Position numbers and translations under genes: made by a program. From Eledone cirrhosa (taxonomy: Eukaryota), in NCBI GenBank assembly GCA_964016885.1, contig OZ024743.1, forward strand, positions 294,872,001-294,936,000: a DNA stretch of 64,000 nt, read 5' to 3'. Each line of letters opens with the position of its first letter. Positions within the stretch are counted from its first letter, which is position 1. Positions 3,182 to 39,200 of the stretch are shown here, piece after piece. The notes under the pieces are model-generated. The model had not been told where the DNA came from, made no database searches, and was given only the letters and a program-made list of their open reading frames with translations.

Positions 3182-5417
3182 TTATAAGTTATATATAGTT
3201 CTGAATGTTGAATGCAGGCGATGTCTACAAGAATTAAATAAATTCGTTCTTAGATTAATAGAGTTTTTACATTTAAGTATGAAAAAAATTCCCTCAGTAC
3301 ACAATTTGCAGAATCTAGATAAAGCTGTGTTTCGGTACGCGGGTGCTTTTGAAATTATTTCTCAAGCTAATGAATAGTTCATATTCTTTCATTTTAAGTT
3401 CCATATCAGGTTTGAAACAGAAGTTGAAGATTTTTTATCAAATCTTCGGAAAGAGCATTTGTGATTATTCCAGCGACTTTTAAATTCAGTAGAAGTTGCA
3501 CCGACATAGTTAAATATATTATCACTAGTTTTAACTGTACACTTATAGACAACGTTTTTATATAAGCACCTATTTTGTAAAGGCCAGTTTGATTTAATTC
3601 TACAGTTACATTTGTTGTTGTTCGGAACGGTACTATTATGTTGGATGTTGCTAGAGATATTACTGATATTTTGGTTATTTTTGTTATGGTTTAAATTTCT
3701 ATTATTAATTCTATTTATATTTTGTGCTATGTTCATAGTAGTAGAGTAGGATAGTTTTATAGTGTGTCTGTTAAAGATTGAGTGGTATCTGTGGGCTTTA
3801 GGAAATCATTTATCTAGTGCTTTAAGGAATAGCTTTGCTAAAGGTGTTTTTACGCATAATGAGAATGAGGGTGAATACCAAATAATATTTCTAGTTCTAG
3901 TTCTTCTGTTAGTTTTAGAGTTTAAGTTAAATTTGTTATTATTATTACAATTAATAGTAGGGTTATTTGCCTTATTACTGTTGTCGATGTATTTAATCTT
4001 ATTTATATACCCTGCTCTATTTAAAGCTTCATTATAATATTCTGACTTATCGTCAAAAATCTTTTTATTAGCGGAGATGCGTGAAATCCGTTGTTGGATA
4101 GAATTGACGATAGTGTACTTGATAGATCTTGGATGATTAGAGTTAAAACTTGCATAGTGTAGATTCTCATTAATTTTATGGAATGGATAGTAGAGCCCTG
4201 TCTTAAGGTTTAATGTTACGTCTGAAAAGTTAACAATTTTATAGTTATTCTCTATTTCTAACTTAAGGTTGTAGCTATTGAAGAATTGTATTATGGATTT
4301 TCTTTTCTTATTAATTTCACAATTACTATGATTTTCAATTAAAAGCAGCATATCATCACGACATAAACCACCGGTCATCTCTGGTATTTTTCTATGCAGT
4401 GTATTATTAATAAATAGCCCCACAAGATCCGTTATTTGTGCCGAGTCAGATGATCCCATGGTGATATCAACATTATTTTTTCTATCGGCTCTTGTCCAGA
4501 GATGATTGTTGAATTCAATTAAAGTTTTCTCTGCAGTTAAAATAATATGCATTTCTTCGCTAGATAAATATGTATGTTTAGATGCACAGAGAAGAGCTTT
4601 ATTAAGAAAACTAGGAGTAATAGAGGAGTAGTAGTTTGCAATATCCATTTGTATGAATTTTTTGTTATGTTTAAATTTTATATTATTGAACCAATCTATA
4701 ACCTCGTTAGTACCGTTCCATAGTTTTAGGTCAGATAATTTTTTAAGTTGAGGTATGATTCTATCTAATATAATGTTTACTAACCATGCCTAAGTCTGAT
4801 TTAGATGGGGCTATAAGTCTGACTGGTAGTTCTATTTCAAAGTTTCTTTTCTGGTCTATCAGGTTAATTTTCGGTCTTCTAGGTATAAAGGGTTCGGTCC
4901 TATTTTCGATGCCTAATTTATGAATTATTTCAGAAGCTTCTCTATTTAAAATTTCAAGATCTTCATTAGTTGTTATTTTGTAGTTTTTCCTTAGTTCTTT
5001 CAATATAAGGTTATTGTATTCGTCCTTTTGCATTCCGTATAGATTGTTAGTTTTGTCAGATTTTACGAGGATCTTCTCAGTTTTTTCAAAATTGTCTATA
5101 TTATTCTTGAGGCCTTTAAGGTATTCCTGGCCTGCAAATTGGTTTTTCTTGAATTTGATGTTTTGTATGATCGATATTATTTCATTTTCAAGTTACATTA
5201 ATAGTTTGTTGTTGGGTGGAGTTTTCTTGGATTTGAAGATCATATCTAAGTTGTAACTGGGTTTATTTGTTTTTTCATCTGATTTTCTATCGAAATGGAA
5301 GGAACGCCCTCTAAGTCTTCGTATAAAGGAGTCAGATTTATCAATGAGTTGTTTAAGATATTCCTTATTCTTAGGTAAAGGTACATATTTTAGAGAAGAA
5401 ATCCTAAAGTATTCCAT
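3182..5417 (-). pseudogene. PLE reverse transcriptase + GIY-YIG endonuclease, frameshifted
   Basis: SLKYVPLP..YLKQLIDKSDSFIRRLR; DIANYYSSI; TMGSSDSAQITDLVGLF; GGLCRDD (YRDD mutated); IIWYSPSF; CNC..NVVYKC..YVGATSTEFKSRWNNH; CKLC..E. Several frameshifts and two in-frame TGA codons. Confidence 0.92.
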
Positions 5418-6519: not shown

Positions 6520-9500
6520 TAGCAACTAACAGTGCTGCGATCGAATGTGGCTTTTTAGCCCAGCCAATGATCTAAAATGTCTTGCACAGAGTCGGCAACC
6601 AAAACATTCACTGGGAATAGTCGGCTGTGGTTGGAGTTCGTGTACTCTTGCATGTCGCTTGAGCCCTCCTGCTGATTTACATTCTCTACCACATGTTTGG
6701 CAAGCATGATGAGTAGCATCTCCAACAGCAGCCTGGTAGTCAACCACTGGTCTTACTTTATGACTGCGAAGATGACTTTCGAGTCCTGCTTTGCTTAGGC
6801 AGAGTCTCGCACAGACGCTGCATGTCAGAACCATAGGAGGACCCTCGCCGTCTGGAAGTGCAACAGCAATGCCCTTCCTCACGTCCCGCTTTACTTTCTC
6901 GTGTGCGATTCGAGATGCCTCAAAGGCAACTTTTCCCTCATATACAGTCTTTCTCCATTTATTACGATCAGCAGCAATATTTTCCCATGTATCAGCAGAG
7001 ATGTTAGCGTCTTTCAGAGAGGCTTTCAAGGAATCCTTATACCTCTTTTTTGGTTTATGTGGCGGTCGTTTTCCTTTAACCAACTCTCCATAGAAGAGTT
7101 GTTTTGGTATTCTAGAATGCTTCATCCTGGCAAGGTGACCACTCCAACGGAGTCGTTGCTTAAGCACAAGAGCTTCTATACTGTCACACATAGAGCTCTC
7201 CAAAATCTCGACATCACTGATGTGGTCCCTCCAGTGAACGCCGTGGATCCGTCTGAGACACATCTGATGGAAACGCTCCAATTGCTTAAGGTGACGTCGA
7301 TATGTGACCCAGGTCTCGCAGGCATAAAGAAGACAAGAGAGTACACATGCCCTGTACACCTTTACCTTTGTCCTCCTGCATATGTCTCGCCGACCCCAGA
7401 GTCGCCTTTCTAGCTTTCCGAAAGCATCACTTGCTTTCCTAATCCTAAGTGAGATTTCACTGTCAAGGTTGCCGTATCGATTGACAGTGCTTCCCAGGTA
7501 GACAAACTGATCAACCACTGCAAGTCGTTTGCCATACACATAGATGTTTGGTTCAGTGTACTGCTTACTAGGGGCAGGTTGGTACATGACGACGGTTTTC
7601 TTGAGACTGACAGTCAAACCCAGGGCAGTGCAAGCGTCAGAAAATACATTCAAAATGTGCTGCATATCACTCTCTGTGTGCGCTACAAGATCGCAATCAT
7701 CTGCATACAAGAGGTCTCTTATGACTGATGTAAATACTTTTGTCTTCGCAGCAAAGCGCCTGATGTTAAATATGCTGCCTGAGGTTCGATATCGGATGTA
7801 AACACCATGCTCGCAATTCCTGAATGCAATACAGAAAACTATTGCAAAGTATATGGCAAACAGGGTCGGTGCTGGAATATCCCCCTGTTTAACTCCATTT
7901 TTTACTGAGATAGGCTCCGACATGTTACCTCCGACATTAACCCAAGCCTTCATGTCGTCATGGAAAGACCTAACTAAAGCAAGGAACTTATCAGGGCAAC
8001 CAAGTTTCTGGAGAACCTTCCATAATGCATCTCTGTTGACAGTATCGAAAGCCTTTGTCAGATCGACAAAAACCTGATACAGATCCAAGCCCTGTTCAAT
8101 GCACTTCTCCTGGAGCTGTCTAGCTGAGAAGATCATATCAATAGTGCCGCGTCCAGCACGAAAACCAGATTGACTTTCAGGAAGGACACAATCTGCAATG
8201 TGTGTCAGCAGACGGTCCAGAAGCACCCTACATAGAACTTTCCCTACGACAGAAAGCAATGATATACCTCTGTAGTTCCCACAATCATTCCTGTTACCCT
8301 TTACCTTGTACAAGACCACCATTACTGCATCTCTCCAGTCCTCAGGCACGGATTCATTAGCCCATATCCTTCCAAACAGAGAGTGAAGATGTTGCAGGAG
8401 TCTCTCACCACCATATTGTAGGAGCTCAGCATGTATGCCATCCATACCTGGAGATCTTCCACTGTTCAGCTTCGAAATAGCCACTGCAACCTCCACAAGC
8501 GTCGGAAGTTCTGCGAGAGCTACTTTCACAGGACTTTCCGGAATGAGATTGAGGAGATCTTCACTGACGACAGACGGCTGATTCAAAAGATCATCAAAGT
8601 GCTCTCGCCACCTTCGTAGAATTCCCTGTGAGTCACGAAGAAGTTCTTTGCCATTCTTGCTGCGAATCGGTGTCACCAGAGAAGAAGACGGTCCATAAAC
8701 CTCACGCAAGAGACTGTACAACAGCTTTGTGTTATTGCAATCAGACGCAGTTTGTATCTCACCAGCCTTCTCACTCCACCACTGATCCTTCATCTGAGAA
8801 AGCCTCACCTAACACGTGATTTTACATCCCCGAGCTCCTCATGCAACGTATTCCTCTCCTGTGGTTTTGCCGTCAAGTAGCGTGACAGAGCACGCCTCTT
8901 ATCAGCCAACAAGTCTTCTATATGTACATCATTCTCATTAAACCAGTCCTGATGTTTTCTCTGCACCAATCCCAGAACACGTCTGCCTACATCATAAACC
9001 GACTTTTTAAGGGTCGGCCAATCCTCACCAAGATCTGCAGCCTGCATCTCTTCTTCCAATGTCCTCTTCACATTTTTATCCTTAAGACGAGCAGCATTCA
9101 ATTTTTTGGGCAGGGTAACACCAGGAGCCCGGATTTTACGTTTGGTGATTAGATGCACTTTTGCGCGTACCAGGCGGTGGTCCGTCCAGCACTCAGCTCC
9201 ACGAAGAACACGTACACACTGCACATCCTGTCTGTCACGCATCCTGACTAGGACGTAGTCCAAAAGATGCCATTCCTTAGATGCAGGATGCATCCATGTG
9301 GTCTTGAATTTGTTCTTTTGTTGGAACATGTTGTTGGTAACACAGATCCAGCTCCTCACACACCTGCAGCAAGAGCATACCATTGCTGTTACACTTTCCC
9401 ACCCCATGCCTTCCGATTACATTCCATGTGTTAAAATCCCTACCCACTCTAGCATTAAAGTCACCAAGCACGATGACTTTGTCTGCCTGAGGGATATTTC

Positions 9501-10109
9501 TTAGCACACCTTTCAAGGCATGGTAAAAGGACAGTTTTTCTTCATCGACAGAATTCATAGTTGGAGCATACACACTCACCAGGGTAGCATATCTTCCCTT
9601 GTCCAGCGGAACTCTCATGGACATAAGACGCTCACTAATCCCTACTGGGAATTCTTCTAAGTTATTCACCAGTACAGTCTTAACAGCAAATCCTACCCCA
9701 GCATCTCTTCTGGTTCCTTCATCTCTTCCTTTCCAGAAGAATGTATATTCTCCACAAAATTCCGTAAGAGGACCATCTCCAGCTAACCTCGTCTCAGATA
9801 AAGCCACGATGTCAAGATCGTAACGTCGAAGCTCCTTTGCAACAAGAGCGGTCCTTCGTTCAGGACGCTCCAAAGAATCCCTATCAAGCAGTGTCCGTAC
9901 GTTCCAGCAGCCAAGACTAAATGCCCTGTTTGGCTCTATTACAATGGCACGATGACGGGCGGGCCCAGGTTGTGATAACTTGGGGCCCCTGCCCTTATTG
10001 CCAATGATCTTTTTTGTTCCAGAACCCAAATTGGCAATTATCTCGTTTACATTGTTCTGGAACATCATTGAATTGGGAAAAAAAAAAAAAAAAAAAAAAA
10101 GTAATAATA

Positions 10110-10148
<39 letters not shown>

Positions 10149-10445
10149 GTACACTATTAATAATTATTAATGCACTCGTGCAATGCCTGTGCGTGACGAA
10201 TATTTTTAAAGTGAGGAAAGACTGTGCACTGAGCCAATCCCACTCTCTGAGCGACAGTAGCTATAACTCGAAAATAAGAAAAGATCAACATCATCGGTAA
10301 CTACTGAGCCGCAGGTTTTATATCGGAGTTAACCCAGTTTCCTTAGATGCCTTCTCCTAGAAGAATACCCTGACAAGGGCTAGGGGTTCTTCACTCCCAG
10401 TGGTTTAACTGCTCGATCGGGCATCCAGCCCGATTATTTCTATGT
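6013..10445 (-). mobile_element. RTE-clade LINE, nearly full length
   Basis: APE + RT ORF; RTE-like 5' UTR motif ctaggagaagg...taaaacc at 10315-10360 (minus); probable 3' end ggccatactcgataacgaggggg...(TATG)n at 6013-6070; outer boundaries uncertain. Confidence 0.85.
6526..10068 (-). pseudogene. RTE polyprotein: AP endonuclease, reverse transcriptase, three C2H2 zinc fingers; two frameshifts
   Basis: GCWNVRTL, ALSETR, SVYAPT, LGDFNARVG, HLLDYV, TDH; NYRGISLLS, QSGFR, FVDLTKAFD, GVKQG, LLYADD, YLGS. Frame changes at about 9340 and 8806; no internal stops otherwise. Confidence 0.95.
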
Positions 10446-22905: not shown

Positions 22906-24619
22906 ATAATAATAAATTTGAAGACTAAAATCCAAAGAGGGCTCGATAAGGATAAATATATATCAAATATAAAAGAACCGTAGAGCAAATATTTATTAAA
23001 ATAACAGATTAAAGTTTAACCAAAGAATCGCTGCTTTCACCCTTAACGGGATCTTCTGAAACTAACAAAGTCAATCTCTGAATGCAGAAGTGAATATTTC
23101 AAAAAACGTTACAACCGGAGTAAGACAGGAAGACGATACTTTGGTTCGTGGGAACGTTCCCTGGCAAAGAACGGAAAAAAACGAATATAATACGTTATTA
23201 TTTGGAGCGGTGAAAAACAATTACACGCAGAGACAAAACAACTTTTATGGTATAAAAGAATTCGTAGACGAATATTCTATTACATGGTTAATAGAGACGT
23301 TCTCTGGCAATGAACGGAAAAAACGAAGATAATACGTCATATGTGGAGCGGGGAGAACAATTGCACGCAAAGACAAAACCACGTAAATGGTATAACTGAA
23401 GTCGTTGACTAAAATTCTAATTACGAAAGAGAATGATTCCCGGCTTCAGAGTTAAGAATAAAGTAAATAAAATACAGAGGTAAATGAAATTGAATAAATA
23501 CATACACGCATCCATATACGTACAATCACAAGCATACGCGAAAACACTTGCCATAGGTATACAAATACATGCACGTACACAATTAAAAACCGCAAGCACA
23601 TACAGAACCCACGCACTGACTGTACACGAACGCATACGACTGTATTCACCAAATACATATAAAAATATATATAATATATATATATGTGTGTGTGTGTGTG
23701 CTTGTATATATATAATTAAATAAACGTATATAAATAAGTAAATACGTATATAACCAGCGCACACACAAACCTACATGTAAATACACTTATGTTCGGAGAC
23801 GACAAAACACGAAGTACACATATACACACACACTACATACGTACGAACCGGCATACTCACACAGACGCAAAACTCACGTATACATATAACCGAAAGCATA
23901 TGTACCAGAATATATAATATATACGCCATAACATATACAATCAAATATACGTACGAGAAAGTATACGTACCTTAAAAAAACGTACAGGTAATATACACTT
24001 ACCTATACAAATAAGTAATGGTATAAACATAACATATACTTAGCTACCACATCAAGACGTAAACTATCCGAGTATAGTTCGTACTATCCGTTAGATTTTT
24101 TGTTAAAGATGTCTTTGGCGTAGAGTATTTCCGGGGCCTCAGCGGCGCAGAGGTCACATGGTCTTTTATTTCCGTTATACGATCTAGCGCTAGCTAGGAT
24201 CTCCCAGTGTAACTTATATTGGGTGTGGTTGTATTTTAGACTCCAGATATAAGCTGAAAGTGACGTCATATTTCTTCTAGGTCTATTCTCGTACTCTGTA
24301 TATGCTACATTACTGACAAATCCTCTCCGAGCAAGAGCTTCATTGTAATATGTGGAATGGTCGTTGAAATATGCTCGTTAGTAGATAGACGGAAAAGCCT
24401 CAAAGAAACGTTTCTTACCAGATTATTGGCTATGCTTGCAGGATGGTTAGAATGATTTACTTATGTAATTAAGCGTATCATTCGGCTTTCTATACGGGTA
24501 ATGCAAGCCATTCGATAAATTGAGGGTAACGTCGAGGTAATTAACGACCAAGAGGTTGTCCTCAACCTGTATGGAGAGGTTGAAGCCTTTAAAAAAGGCT
24601 GTGAGTTCTTTTCTGAACC

Positions 24620-25458
24620 TGGTAAGTAACGTTTCTTTGAGGCTTTCCCGTCTATCTACTAACGATCATATTTTCAACGACCATTCCACATATTACAATG
24701 AAGCTCTTGCTCGGACTGGATTTGTCGATAAGGTAGCATATACAGAGTACGAGAATAGACCTAGAAGAAATAGATCCCGACGCATTATATGGTATAACCC
24801 ACCATATAATATGGAGGTGGCCACACCATTAGCTAAGATGTTTTTCTCCCTTATTATGAAACATTTTTCCCCTACACATAAATATAGTAAAATCTTTAAT
24901 AGAAATATTCTTAAAATTTCTTACTCTACGACTCCTAACCTTGCACATAATACCACAGCTTCAAATTTAGCTAAACTATCTAACCGTAGGAACACGTGTA
25001 ATCCTGTAGTTAGTACTAACTGTAATTGTAAGAATCGGGTTGACTGCCCCCTTCCGGGAAATGCCGCTCTAGTAACATTGTCTACAAATGTAAGGTTGAA
25101 ACACCCACGTACCGTGGGTCCTACATGGGGTAACCGCCAATAGATTCAAGCAGCTTCTTTATATGCATAGCCCTCTTTTTGTTACCCTTTGAGAAGGAAT
25201 ATGACGTCACCTTCAGCTTATATTTGGAGTCTAAAAGACAACCACACCCAATATAAGTTACACTGGGAGATCCTAGCTAGGGCTAGATCATATAACGGAA
25301 ATAAAAGACTATGTGACCTCTGCGCCGCTGAGGCCCTGGAAATACGCTACGTCAAAGACCACATCTTAAACAAAAGATCTGAGGCAATTTCGGCTTGTAA
25401 ACATAAATTGCACAAAACCTTCCTGTATTACAGCACCACATTATACCCTAACGGATAG
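24620..25458 (+). pseudogene. PLE RT thumb/linker + GIY-YIG, 5'-truncated and frameshifted
   Basis: IIWYNPPY, LKISYS, CNC...CPL, WEIL...CDLCAAE. Confidence 0.9.
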
Positions 25459-29419: not shown

Positions 29420-29462
<43 letters not shown>

Positions 29463-29485
29463 TATATATATATTATATATATAAT

Positions 29486-29518
<33 letters not shown>

Positions 29519-29537
29519 TATATATATATTATATATA

Positions 29538-29576
<39 letters not shown>

Positions 29577-29705
29577 GTGAGGTTTTTTTTACAAGATGAA
29601 AAATAACCGAGGTGTCCTACACGAGTGGAAGTATAAAGAAAAAGGGATGAAATCGAAAATGCAACTGAAGTCTTATTTTTTTAAAAAATATATATTTATT
29701 TGGTT

Positions 29706-29743
29706 CCTTTACCGGTTTCGCAGTTCTTCTGCTTTTCAAAAGG
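29706..29743 (-). ncRNA. Minimal type I hammerhead ribozyme, U3-A8 variant
   Basis: Minus strand: cctt-TTGAAAA-gcag aagaa ctgc-GAAA-ccgg-TA-aagg. Confidence 0.85.
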
Positions 29744-29813
29744 TCAGTTGAGATGGAGGGTCTGTGGTTTTTCTCACATGTGAGAAAAACCACAGACCGT
29801 CCATCTCAACTCA

Positions 29814-29851
29814 CCTTTTGAAAAGCAGAATAACTGCGAAACCGGTAAAGG
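29814..29851 (+). ncRNA. Minimal type I hammerhead ribozyme, U3-A8 variant
   Basis: cctt-TTGAAAA-gcag aataa ctgc-GAAA-ccgg-TA-aagg, AATAAA downstream. Confidence 0.85.
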
Positions 29852-29918
29852 AACCAAATAAATATATATTTTTTTAAAAAATAAGACTTCAGTTGCATTT
29901 TCGATTTCATCCCTTTTT

Positions 29919-29964
<46 letters not shown>

Positions 29965-30269
29965 AAGGACGATTTGTTATGTCCTCGTTACGTTTATTGA
30001 GTAGCGATACGCATTTCGCTGTTGATCAGCTCAAGGTTCGATCTGTATCAGCATAGCCCGCCTCTGGAATCAAATGCTCTTCGGATCGCTGCTGTGATAA
30101 TGCCATTAACAGAAGTCCAATGAGCTGTTGGTTCCTGAAACGGGCTAGATTGATACAGATTGAACCTGGAACTGATCAACAGCGAAACGCGCGTCGCTAC
30201 TCAAGTAACGTAATGAAGACATAACAAAGCAACGTAATGTAGACATAAGAAATCGTCCTTTAGAGCGAT

Positions 30270-30445
30270 GGTTTGGCTGTACCTGTAGAGCGTCAGACAC
30301 CATGCTTTGCAGCATACTTATGGCCCTTTGCGTTCTGAATTTCAAATCCGCCGAGGTTAACTTTGCCTTTCATCCTTACGAGGTCGATAAAATAAAATAC
30401 CAGTGGTGCACTGGGGTAATCGCTGATCTTGTGCCAAAACTATTT
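30270..30445 (+). mobile_element. Nin-like SINE
   Basis: Match to 165-348. Confidence 0.8.
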
Positions 30446-30548
30446 TTATTATTATAATTACTCTGCTTAGATCTACACCTTTTAACCGACTGGAAACTAT
30501 GCATCGAGTGCTCACTCGAGTGAACCTACGGTAACTGCACGTTACATT

Positions 30549-30623
<75 letters not shown>

Positions 30624-32017: not shown

Positions 32018-33397
32018 CTACTGTCCATATATTTTGAGAAAGGTCCCGGCTCTAAGGTGTCTGCATGTCCCGAAGAAGTCGGTTCTGAGGTTTATCAGGC
32101 CGCTTCCACCTCTTAGTATCTCGAGGGTCTCGTTCAGGCATAGTTTGCATATGCAAGATCCCCCTTTATCGGGTGGTACTTTCCTGATTATGTACCAGGC
32201 CAGAGAGTATGGGGTCCTGTCCAGCTTAAGCTTCCAGATCAGGTCGGAGAGAGCTGTGCTTTTCCTTTTGGCCTCCTTCTTGAATGAATGGCGATGGTTG
32301 TACCAGCGGTCCTTAAAGCTCGTTGATGTGGCTCCTATGTAGAGGTGTTCGGAGTTGGGGGTTTTAACCCTACAACCGTACACTATGTTCTTCTTGAGAC
32401 ATTCATTACCAAGGGGGCATGATTCGGGGTTTCTACAGTTGCAGAGGGTGGGCGGCCTCTGCGTGCTTAGATTAGGGTTCTCATTATGTGTTACATGTTG
32501 GTCTTCCCCCATGCTCGGTGGGGGGTCCTTGGGTCTGTTTGTGTTTCTTGGGTGGGCTCTGGGTCCCCCCTTCCCTCCTTTCACATGGTTCTGCTGAGTG
32601 TTTGTATTGCCATCTTCTGGTTGTGTGTGGTTTTTAAGCCTACTTCTGTTGATGCTAGCTATGTGTTGGGCCAAATTTCTCGTGGTGGAATACGAAAGCT
32701 TCACAGTGTGTCTGTTGAAGATCCTGTGGTATCTGTGGTCCCTCGGGAAGCATTTGTCAAGTGCTCCAAAGAACAATCGGGCCAAGCTTTTCTTTAGGGC
32801 CTCTGAGTAGGGCTGGGTTGTACCACGTGATTTGTCGGTGTCTCCTCCTATATGTGTGGGTTGGGGGCTTCGTGATTTGTTGGAGATTTGTTGGTTTGCT
32901 GGTGGTTTCCGCACTGTTGCTTCCCTTTTGGGCTCTATACTTTTTGTTATCTTCACGGCCCGGATTTGTGGGGTGGTTGTTGTCTGCCCCGGGAGATCCA
33001 TCGTGGGGTGGTCGCCCGTTTCCCCCCCCCCACGTGTCCTGCGGTTGGGGTTGTCCGTCCTGGGGTAGTTAGCATCACGCCTGAGACTGCTACTCATATT
33101 GTGCTCCATCTCGTGGTCAAGCGCACTAGTCCCCACCGCCCGTGTGGTGGTGTCTGGTACATGGTGCCTATTTGATTTTGCTCTGCCTGTATTGTTAGGG
33201 TTCGCCCTCCCCCCTCTGGTAATGCGGTTGTAGGTGTCTGTTGGGCTATCCACCTCCCGGCTTTTCGGACTATATGTTATATTTTGTCCATGTGCCGCCT
33301 TCTTTAGAGCTGCGTTGTAATATTCCGCGTGGTTGTTGAATATTTCCTTACTTGCGGACAGGCTGGAGATCCTAATAACACTAATAACTGACAACAC
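32018..33397 (-). CDS. 5'-truncated PLE ORF: thumb end, long low-complexity linker, intact Naiad-type GIY-YIG endonuclease
   Basis: 459 aa open frame; CNCRNPESCPL..CL..NIVYGC..YIGATSTSFKDRWYNH..STALSDLIW..CKLCLNE..CRH. Confidence 0.85.
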   Translation of the reverse strand: MLSVISVIRISSLSASKEIFNNHAEYYNAALKKAAHGQNITYSPKSREVDSPTDTYNRITRGGRANPNNTGRAKSNRHHVPDTTTRAVGTSALDHEMEHNMSSSLRRDANYPRTDNPNRRTRGGGETGDHPTMDLPGQTTTTPQIRAVKITKSIEPKREATVRKPPANQQISNKSRSPQPTHIGGDTDKSRGTTQPYSEALKKSLARLFFGALDKCFPRDHRYHRIFNRHTVKLSYSTTRNLAQHIASINRSRLKNHTQPEDGNTNTQQNHVKGGKGGPRAHPRNTNRPKDPPPSMGEDQHVTHNENPNLSTQRPPTLCNCRNPESCPLGNECLKKNIVYGCRVKTPNSEHLYIGATSTSFKDRWYNHRHSFKKEAKRKSTALSDLIWKLKLDRTPYSLAWYIIRKVPPDKGGSCICKLCLNETLEILRGGSGLINLRTDFFGTCRHLRAGTFLKIYGQ

Positions 33398-33576
33398 TAA
33401 TAACCGACCAATGAGAGGAGAAGGGGACCTGTGACACGAAAATTCGTTTGTTTGAATTCATATGACTCCAGTTCCCCAGTGAATTAACAACCCAGCAAGG
33501 AACTGGGCATATCAGAGTATTGACAATATCATACACCTAAACAACATATGTACTTGTCTATACCATACTAATTCAA

Positions 33577-35449: not shown

Positions 35450-36227
35450 TAATAATAATTAATTGGAAGGCTAAAATACAAAGAGAGCTCGATAAGGATA
35501 AATATATATCAAATATATAAGAACTATAGAGCGAATATTTATTAAAATAACAGATTAAAGTTTAAGCAAAGAATTGCTGCTTTCACCCTTAACGGGAATT
35601 TCTGAAACTAACAATGTCAATCTCTGAACGCAGAAGTGAATATTTCAAAAACCGTACAACCGGAGGAAGAGAGTAAGACGATACTTTGGTTCGTGGAAAC
35701 CTTCCCTGGCAAAGAACGGGAAAAAACGAATATAATGCGTCATTATTTGGAACGGTGAAAAACAATTACACGCAAAGACAAAACCACGTTTATGGTATAA
35801 AAGAAGTCGTAGACTAATATTCTATTAGATGGTTCATAGAGACGTTCTCTGGCAATGAACGGAAAAAACGAAGATAATACGTCATATGTGGAGCGGAAAG
35901 AACAATTGCACGCAAAGACAAAACCACGTAAAAGGTATAACTGAAGTCGTAAACTAAAATTCTAACTACGAAACCGAATGATTCTCAGCTTCAAAGTTAA
36001 GAATAAAGTAAATGAATTACAGAGGTAATTGAAATTAAGTAAATATATACACGGATCCATATACGTACATACACACAAGCATACGCGAAAACACTCGCCA
36101 TAGGTATACAAATACACGCACGTACACAAAAAAAACAAAAAAAAACTGCACGCACACACAGAACCCACGCAACGCCTGTACCCGCACTCATACGAATGTA
36201 TACACCAAATACACATACAAATATATC

Positions 36228-36298
<71 letters not shown>

Positions 36299-39200
36299 TT
36301 TTATGTATACATATAATTAAATAAACGTATATAAATAAATAAATACGCATATAACAAGCCCACACACATACCTACATATAAATACACATATGTACGGAGA
36401 CGCACGTCAACCAAAACACAAAGTACACATATACACATACCTTACATACGTACGAATCCGCATACACACACATACGCAAAACTCCAGTATACACATAACC
36501 AAAGCATATGTACCAGAATATATAATATATACGCCATAACCTATACAATCAAATATACGTACGAGAAAGTATACGTACCAACACAAAACATACAGGTAAT
36601 ATATACTTACCTATACACATACGTAATGGTATAAACATAACATATACTTAGCCTCCACATCAAAACGTAAAATATCCACGTATAGTTCTTACTATCCGTT
36701 AGGGTATAATGTGGGGCTGTCATACAGGAAAGAGTTGTGCAATTTATGTTTACAAGCCGAAATTGCCTCAGATTTGTTGTTAATGATGTTGTCTTTGGAG
36801 TAGAGTATTTCCAGGGTCTCAGCGGCGCAGAGGTCACATGGTCTTTTATTTCCGTTATACGATCTAGCCCTAGCTAGGATCTCCCAGTGTAACTTATATT
36901 GGGTGTGGTTGTCTTTTCGACTCCAGATATAAGCTGAAAGTGACGTCATATTCCTTCTTAAAGTGTAACGAAAAGAATGGGTATGCATGTAAAGACGCTG
37001 CTCGTTAGTAGATAGACGGGCATATTTTCAACGACCATTACCATCAACTGCTACATAATGCTGTAACTAAGGATTACCGTAAAACTAATCGGAGCGCCAT
37101 TAATGAAATCAACGATGCTGGGTTTAAAATCATCTCCGATCTAAACATCCTGGATCGGACTGAACCTCTGGACCATATTTCTCCCCACTTTACCCTGAAG
37201 GATCACAAATCCAATTTTCCGAACAACCCCTCAATTTGGCTTATTAACCCTACGAAGTCCGATTTATATAGACTTAGTAAAAGGATTCTTGATACAATTA
37301 TACCTGAAATTAGAAGTTTGGCCTCTCTTTCACTGTGGAACAATTGTTTCGCGGTGTTTGATTGGTTCAACGGCATATGCAACAAGGAACATTGCCGTTT
37401 TATCCAATTCGACATCAATAATTACTACTCTCCATCACTTTACCACTTCTCCTTAGAGTTATCAATTTCGCTAAAACACTCACTGTGGTGAAGGATTTTG
37501 AAGTTGATGTCATCCTCAATGCCCGTAAGTCGGTGATTAATTTCGACGACTCTATTTGGATTAAAAAATCTAGTAGTACCCATTCGACGTGAGTATGGGC
37601 GCCAGTTATTCTGCGGAGGTTACTGATCTTACCGGCCTTTTCCTTCTTTTTTCTATCAAGGAAGAATTCCCCAACGTAGGCGGTGGTTTGTACCGGTGGT
37701 TTATAACTAAGTGCGGCCCACGTGCTTGCGACAGGTTCATAAAAGAACTCACAGCCTTCTTTAAAGGCTTCAACCTCTCCATGTAGGTTGAGGCCAACCT
37801 CTCGGTCGTTAATTACCTCGAAGTTACCCTCAATTTATCGAATGGCCTGCATTACCCGTATAGAAAGCCGAATGATACGCTTAATTACATAAGTAAGCTT
37901 TCTAACCACCCTGCCAGCATAACCAAGAACCTGGTAAGAAAGGTTTCTTTGAGGCTTTCCCGTATATCTACTAACGAGCATATTTTAAACGACCATTCCA
38001 CATATTACTATGAAGCTCTTGCTCGGAGTGGATTTATCGATAAGGTAGCTTATACAGAGTACGAGAATAGACCTAGAAGAAATAGATCCCGACGCATTAT
38101 ATGGTATAACCCACCATATAATATGGAGGTGGCCACACCATTAGCTAAGATATTTCTCTCCTTTATCACGAAGCATTTTCCACCTACACACAAATATAGT
38201 AACATTTTTAATAGAAATACTATTAAAATTTCTTACTCTACCACTCCTAACCTTGCACATAACATCGCAGCTTCAAATTTAGCTAAACTAACTAGCCGTA
38301 GGAACACGTGCAACCCTGTAGTTAGTACTAACTGTAACTGTAGGAATCGGGTTAACTGCCCCCTATCCGGGAAATGCCTCTCTAGTAACATTGTCTACAA
38401 ATGTAAGGTTGAAACACCCACGTCCCGTAGGGCCTACATAGGGTTAACTGCCAATAGATTCAAGCAGCGTCTTTACATGCATACCCATTCTTTTCGTTAC
38501 CCTTTAAGAAGGAATATGACGTCACTTTCAGCTTATATCTGGAGTCTAAAAGACAACCACACCCAATATAAGTTACACTGGGAGATCCTAGATAGGGCTA
38601 GATCGTATAACGGAAATAAAAGACCATATGGCCTCTGCGCCGCTGAGGCCTTAGAAATACTCTACGCCAAAGACCACTTCTTAAACAAAAAATCTGAGAC
38701 AATTTCGGCTTGTAAACATAAATTGCACAAAACCTTCCTGTATTACAGCCCTACAATATACCCTAACGGATATTTTACGCGGATATTTTACGTCTTGATG
38801 TGGTAGCTAAGTATATGTTATGGTTATACCATTACTTATTTGTATAGGTAGGTATATATTATCTGTACGTTTTGTCATGGTACGTATACTTTCTCGTACG
38901 TAGATTTGATTTTATATGTTATAGCGTATATATTATATATTCTGGTACATATGCTTTGGTTATGTGTCTACTGGAGTTTTGCGTCTGTGTGTGTCTGCGG
39001 GTTCGAACGTATGTAGGGTGTGTGTATATGTGTACCTTGTCTTTTGGTTGACATTCGTCACCGAACATATGTGTATTTATATGTAGGTATGTGTGTGCGC
39101 TTGTTATATACGTATTTATTTATTTATATACGTTTTTTTAATTATATGTATACACACACACACACACACACACACATGTATATATATAAATTTGTTCATA

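Follow-up and report, generated by a model that had tools for sequence, protein, structure and literature searches.

A recurrent hammerhead-bearing palindrome in Eledone cirrhosa is a probable by-product of the insertion of a Penelope-like element

Inverted, 5'-truncated copies with an optional one-sided tail are standard for EN+ Penelope-like elements (PLEs) (PMC8557442, PMC3846280), and the formation of their inverted and tandem structures and of their tails is described as undefined (PMC8557442); here and below, published work is cited for the passages concerned. For palindromes of rotifer Penelope elements, self-priming on an antisense template has been proposed (PMC3846280). The Poseidon PAc protein of Anolis nicks and extends both strands in vitro on uncleaved RNA, with two internal start sites that bound the tail, and the cited passages of that text treat neither inverted products nor the transcription start (PMC11167929). 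In Schistosoma, dual minimal hammerhead ribozymes 100-700 bp apart on opposite strands have been ascribed to truncated PLEs, in a single sentence of the cited passages that gives neither mechanism nor junction analysis; the same paper describes PLE ribozymes with a U3-A8 core and a palindromic stem III (PMC4209133).

Here, we analysed a palindrome in a window of 64,000 nucleotides of the Eledone cirrhosa genome (GCA_964016885.1, contig OZ024743.1, positions 294,872,001 to 294,936,000). Like the inverted copies of EN+ PLEs, it consists of a head-to-head inverted pLTR piece with a tail at one end, a (TA)n target and a hammerhead in the pLTR. Unlike the copies described in the cited passages, its body is reduced to zero, its tail measures 61 nt instead of 30-40, roughly half of the insertions sampled here have their junction 30 nt downstream of a TATA box, and the arms can derive from two haplotypes. 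With the Schistosoma pairs it shares the opposite-strand minimal ribozymes, the U3-A8 core variant and the palindromic stem III. Non-LTR retrozymes are likewise small, non-coding and PLE-derived and carry a type I hammerhead, but as far as the cited passages go they are arranged as head-to-tail tandems, have their ribozymes on the same strand and form circular RNA (bioRxiv 10.64898/2026.07.22.740005). The window instead holds one ribozyme per strand, head to head, and the assignment to retrozymes, which calls for at least two head-to-tail hammerhead units on the same strand, was rejected. In L1 twin priming, the second target strand primes on the RNA, but the inversions are not known to duplicate the 5' end, as happens here. 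The minus-strand strong-stop DNA of LTR elements is a short cDNA that starts close to the 5' end and reaches the cap; it is tRNA-primed and is not known to be integrated, unlike the palindrome.

A preliminary description, made from the letters of the window, had reported a spacer-less palindrome centred at 29778/29779 with about 4 mismatches, one outward-pointing 38-nt hammerhead per arm, a left-only tail of about 60 bp, (TA)n on both sides and no ORF. This anatomy was borne out: the arms (29632-29778 and 29779-29925) are 147 bp each with a spacer of 0, the mismatches are exactly 4 (29758/29799, 29745/29812, 29726/29831 and 29682/29875), the tail stands on one side only, and the single ATG near the sense strands of the arms is an ATG-TGA at the centre. 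In element coordinates, where +1 is the inferred transcription start discussed below, the features are:

29422..29570, no strand: (TA)n target microsatellite on the tail side, from the sequence
29571..29631, minus: PLE tail, element +152..+213, between the two insertion end points, from genome matches and parent comparison
29632..29779, minus: tail-bearing arm, element head +3..+151, from identity with the parent pLTR
29706..29743, minus: minimal type I hammerhead with U3-A8 core and palindromic CCGG stem III, from a descriptor match
29778..29779, no strand: fold-back centre, a shared self-complementary AT (element +3/+4), from junction comparison
29778..29925, plus: tailless inverted arm, element head +3..+151, from arm alignment
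29814..29851, plus: the other minimal hammerhead, whose loop II bears a private change at 29831, from a descriptor match
29922..29951, no strand: (TA)15 target microsatellite on the tailless side, from the sequence

The AT at the centre thus lies two bases inside the putative start, and the outer end of the tailless arm falls on a template TATA. The four arm mismatches are private changes, and arm plus tail are identical at 206/209 positions to the pLTR of the ORF-bearing copies L159, L163 and L164.

Spacer-less palindromes are a known class of artefact, and raw reads over the centre are few (~10-23 per run), two points in favour of a fold-back of the assembly or library. The preliminary description had named an assembly fold-back as an outcome that would overturn it. 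The private mismatches, the one-sided tail and joints between opposite strands in the raw reads from two further samples (122 and 150 reads, with only 2-3 start places each) effectively refute this explanation, and the fixed outer ends, the many junction types at distinct loci and the palindromes with mixed haplotypes also speak against it; we regard it as having next to no chance of being right. Also rejected was a MITE or foldback DNA transposon, since the one-sided tail breaks TIR symmetry and the parent is a reverse transcriptase (RT) element.

Both ribozymes consist of stem I CCTT/AAGG, the core TTGAAAA (U3-A8), stem II GCAG/CTGC, GAAA, stem III CCGG and TA, and so have the core, stems I and II, palindromic stem III and UH site of a minimal type I hammerhead. 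A strict type I descriptor matched twice in the window and not once in any of 20 order-4 Markov controls, and Rfam at the gathering score gave no match anywhere in the window. The predicted cuts fall between 29710 and 29709 on the minus strand and between 29847 and 29848 on the plus strand. The exact motif is kept in 36/65 sampled heads, and the newer AC haplotype at element +38/39 has 4 pairs in hammerhead stem I compared with 3 in the older TA haplotype. Internal duplications in L034 and L157 (2/253 cores examined) have their breakpoints at or beside the predicted cut (+72). The preliminary description had ribozyme folding compete with the hairpin, and in silico the hairpin dominates: the RNA of the palindrome folds at a calculated -233.4 kcal/mol (z -35) with a hammerhead stem pairing probability of 0, while a native single-arm transcript reaches predicted stem probabilities of 0.83 (stem II) and 0.27. 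A predicted cofold forms an intermolecular duplex via CCGG, which stands for pairing and not for activity. In the explanation favoured below, the two ribozymes of the palindrome are passengers on opposite strands.

The preliminary attribution to a PLE proved right, as the parent element was found in the same genome. An RT fragment that lies fused to one copy, L072, gave as query 150 scored matches among 13,393 candidates, many of them in open frames of 775 aa. This ORF2 combines an RT (RVT_1 at 295-441, E 1.3e-6, just below the curated cut-off) with a GIY-YIG endonuclease at its C-terminus (682-772, above the cut-off) in one frame. The endonuclease carries the CCHH motif defined for EN+ PLEs, with two Cys between GIY and YIG (LIYAIKCKGCNEDYIG...H...H), and is preceded by a linker finger CX2-5CxxC in the form CX4CxxC (CGRSNCGTC at aa 645); both are features of Neptune and Nematis (PMC8557442). 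By the linker finger and the (TA)n target, the parent appears Neptune-like. The RT frame continues into the sequence upstream of a window-type head in 19/19 loci, and the layout derived from ten 10-kb loci is promoter-head (+1..+151)-tail (+152..+213)-ORF1 (~400 aa)-ORF2-3' UTR-promoter-head-(tail). The order promoter-head-tail-ORF1-ORF2 is present in two copies, L157 and L164, where both parts of the pLTR side are seen. As in EN+ PLEs, the pLTRs are tandem or inverted and come with tail and hammerhead. In full-length copies the tail is 5' UTR, ~30 nt before the ATG of ORF1, AATAAA stands at +82 in 67/70 heads, and no Pfam family was found in ORF1. Insertions end on one of two TA motifs of the template, CTTTATA (+151) or CTAATATATA (+213), with the tail on either end of the insertions.

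Two further observations concern the expression of the element. At 4392-4479 of L164, 88 nt are common to ORF1 and ORF2, which overlap there in the -1 frame and have a slippery-type heptamer, T TTT TTA; this makes a programmed frameshift possible there; a frameshifted ORF1 is listed for some PLEs in the Fig. 1 legend of PMC8557442. The minus strand of window 29617-29712 also carries splice-like signals, a GTAAAG donor that coincides with the ribozyme cut and, in the tail, a pyrimidine tract with TGTAG. The corresponding predicted intron would start from GTAAAG at +70, across the cut, and extend to TGTAG at +166. It is unsupported: the genome has 0 spliced copies, and the joint +70/+166 was absent from the sequencing runs examined, none of which is recorded as RNA.

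Is the window's centre common to the copies of this family, as the preliminary description had proposed to check? A DNA search in the same genome (3.0 Gb) returned 1,050 candidates, of which 40 were scored, all near full length and palindromic, and 30 fetched copies have a common centre, ends, tail and (TA)n flanks. Since this fetched set was selected for likeness, the parts of the palindrome were counted separately. The exact 26-nt centre occurs 174 times in the genome, whereas a 30-mer of the tail is matched 11,675 times at up to 2 mismatches. Fold-back junctions at the hot spot described below, with up to 14 free bases, number 1,611; the window's exact centre makes up 11% of these, and the commonest junction among those listed is CACATC(T/A)GATGTG, which keeps +1. 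At least 8 nt of (TA)n stand on both sides in 37/40 measured exact-centre copies (4/44 were not parsed). We further examined 90 of the first 91 exact-tail loci listed on contig C1 (C1:34884361 was skipped), a sample that is biased to young copies because it holds exact-tail matches of one contig; L047, itself a fold-back, was excluded as reference. The sample contains 18 long and 72 short copies. An adjacent inverted arm is present in 42/90 loci, the others being solo heads, long copies or copies whose inverted arm lies at a distance, and it ends at +151/152 in 33/42 (with the reference cut at +152; a second alignment agrees except for L103). The window's centre was found at one of the 90. Thus, the centres vary from copy to copy, which is largely the outcome that the preliminary description had itself set as its refutation, and the window's centre is one junction that recurs at a hot spot.

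This hot spot is sharply defined. The 5' ends of short copies fall within the 9 nt from -3 to +6 in 36/72 cases (P ~1e-35 versus uniform) and within -3..+12 in 43/72, with a sharp edge at an A in CCAGATG, and 25/42 adjacent inverted arms end in -1..+8. Relative to the hot spot, TATAAAA starts at -30, CCAATCA at -79 and GGCGC motifs at -109 and -298. Such a TATA-to-start spacing is usual for polymerase II promoters, so that the hot spot is likely a polymerase II start, with transcription probably beginning at +1. In two independent DNA runs of 2026, raw RAD reads also had loose ends at +1 (169 and 199), and in a third run the summed contig depth, which is not a copy number, steps up at +1 and collapses after the tail. 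Alternatively, the hot spot could be a reverse-transcriptase pause or an RNA processing site on longer transcripts, in line with the 23/90 copies that pass +1 into upstream sequence. Read-through copies are expected, however, since the element carries the repeat at either end, and the sharp edge, the TATAAAA at -30, the CCAAT at -79 and the lack of a stable structure in native RNA at +1 (z 0.63) make a pause or processing site very improbable. At the ribozyme cut, no enrichment of 5' ends was found (3/72, P 0.15), and the template RNA was thus likely uncleaved.

Are the palindromes inherited as units or remade at each insertion? We compared the arms of 68 palindromes (44 exact-centre, 24 others) over 7,215 paired columns with the T/A tract and ends masked, and found 72 variants mirrored in both arms and 108 confined to one arm, nearly all of them private. 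The preliminary description had suggested a non-autonomous or retrozyme-like, possibly self-regulating unit. Such a self-propagating unit would be transcribed whole and mobilised in trans, with its ribozymes under the control of the hairpin. The exact centre common to 174 copies, the same anatomy in the 30 best copies and a second copy in tandem in L008 are in keeping with such a unit. Yet this centre accounts for 11% of the hot-spot junctions and occurs on at least 4 haplotypes, which both arms mirror; few one-arm variants recur, and these lie at CpGs, in homopolymers or on unrelated backgrounds, tandem same-strand ribozymes are missing, and so is an internal promoter. No lineage-inherited arm asymmetry was detected among the 44 exact-centre copies and no descent as a unit, in contrast to a non-autonomous PLE family of the MRC1 type. 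With the centre on several haplotypes, no shared asymmetry and the promoter excluded, all three epithets are unsupported, and we hold a self-propagating unit to be most unlikely. Instead, as the promoter (-300..-1) lies outside it, the palindrome is probably a dead end, remade per event from promoter-bearing copies, and we are confident that it is not copied onward. The variant 79T, mirrored in L004 and unique among palindromes, is also present in both heads of the ORF-bearing L159. The palindrome in the window is real, and it is probably a young and recurrent by-product of PLE insertion.

A further kind of variation concerns the boundary between T-run and A-run (window 29680-29692 and 29870-29882), which in all copies slides over 3-10 T at a nearly constant total length. 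The total length is matched between arms in 42/54 (rho 0.64) and the boundary is not (rho 0.15), presumably owing to a hypermutable TTTAAA context that acts after insertion.

The best explanation, which we consider probable, is that two target strands prime on PLE RNA and that two heads of ~150 bases are joined head to head. In one insertion event, both cut strands of the (TA)n target would prime reverse transcription on uncleaved element RNA, at +151 and +213, and both cDNAs would run off at the predicted transcription start or cap. The tail-bearing arm would be the cDNA primed at +213 and the tailless arm that primed at +151, the 61-nt tail being the gap between the two sites, and end-joining would then link the two cDNA ends head to head, here via the self-complementary AT at +3/+4. 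Poseidon PAc and this family have start sites ~80-140 nt below the ribozyme cut in common (PMC11167929). In the cited passages, PAc starts without target homology, whereas both sites here have TA homology, which counts against two primings; unlike those of PAc, the sites are also located within the 5' UTR, ahead of a separate ORF1.

The main rival is that one cDNA folds back at its 3' end, or an antisense RNA primes itself, and is copied to +151 before being joined to the target. Such copying would leave matched arms, as seen in 97.5% of the palindromes typed at +38/39: 514 and 1,016 of 1,569 are matched and 39 combine the older TA with the newer AC. Likewise, 12 mirrored variants are singletons, which fit the copying of one cDNA as well, and junctions away from the start are near-symmetric in 10/42 copies, mostly at self-complementary TA/T-A tracts or TGCA, so that fold-back self-priming or a later central deletion explains them equally well. 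Other observations speak against a single cDNA or for two primings. In 4/42 copies the inverted arm is much the longer one and holds 70-135 nt that the tail arm lacks, while in 6/42 the tail arm is much the longer; and inverted heads are joined directly to ORF1-side sequence in L160 and L163. Moreover, +151 is also the free 3' end of the long copies L157, L158, L161 and L156 and so a likely priming site, the commonest listed junction leaves no room for a hairpin loop, and the hot spot fits a sense promoter. We therefore judge fold-back or self-priming to be unlikely.

The 39 mixed palindromes bear directly on this choice. In the 30 that were fetched, the tail stands on the AC arm in 16 and on the TA arm in 14, and the arms of L194 differ at all 5 diagnostic sites. 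Mixed arms amount to 2.5%, however, compared with ~45% under random pairing from one pool, which counts against two primings; the templates would then mostly be the same molecule, stem from the same locus or belong to haplotypes active at different times. Many mixed palindromes differ at the +38/39 pair only, and in 5/30 this pair sits on an otherwise young arm, so that gene conversion or recurrent change is possible in these. On balance, we lean towards two separate primings.

A more speculative reading, which we offer tentatively and think rather doubtful, is that PLEs replicate like a target-primed LTR element, with a dimeric enzyme and two uncleaved RNAs paired via the self-complementary CCGG of the hammerhead. 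[quoted passage not shown] If AATAAA at +82 or the ribozyme cut ended the transcript, both priming sites would be present near its 5' end only. Should this hold, the ribozyme would be chiefly a dimerisation signal.

The window contains other elements of related kinds. A second, older fold-back family (29963-30262, tail at ~30445-30552; 3,016 candidates of ~80% identity) follows the same head-to-head plan, with a one-sided tail of ~100 nt, flanks of TA/TAA and a cluster of 5' ends at an Inr-like TCATTAC; its copy in the window has ~180 bp of another repeat between arm and tail. Its GAAAC-GCGC-GTC resembles the 3' half of a hammerhead; the descriptor found no hammerhead core in it, a parent ORF was not found nearby, and a TATA box 30 nt above its hot spot is not evident. 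On the minus strand at 6526-10260 lies a near-complete, putatively RTE-like LINE with a presumed RT frame of 760 aa and upstream endonuclease-like frames. Further Penelope-like ORF fragments are at 44219-44992 (minus), 32018-33457 (minus), 37012-38806 (plus), 3806-4789 (minus) and 24541-25143 (plus), the first with a GIY-YIG end like that of the parent and from another family. Two related 140-bp tandem duplications lie 12.5 kb apart at 23154-23424 and 35687-35964.

In the main texts of the literature searched, we found no report of a start-anchored PLE palindrome centre or of arms from two templates, and the cited part of an octopus repeat annotation mentions neither palindromes nor ribozymes (PMC13282606). 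The novelty of both features is provisional, and the supplements of PMC11167929, which map genomic ends, may bear on it. This family provides young natural products in their thousands, in which the priming sites and the stop are fixed and haplotypes are marked. Its palindromes connect the inverted structures of PLEs with the two-site result obtained in vitro and argue against antisense self-priming. Annotators should note that palindromes in (TA)n that look MITE-like or like a 'double ribozyme' can arise as recurrent by-products of retrotransposition and not be families, and that they can mark the transcription start of an element without RNA data. As a natural record of how PLEs insert, the palindromes are unusually clean.
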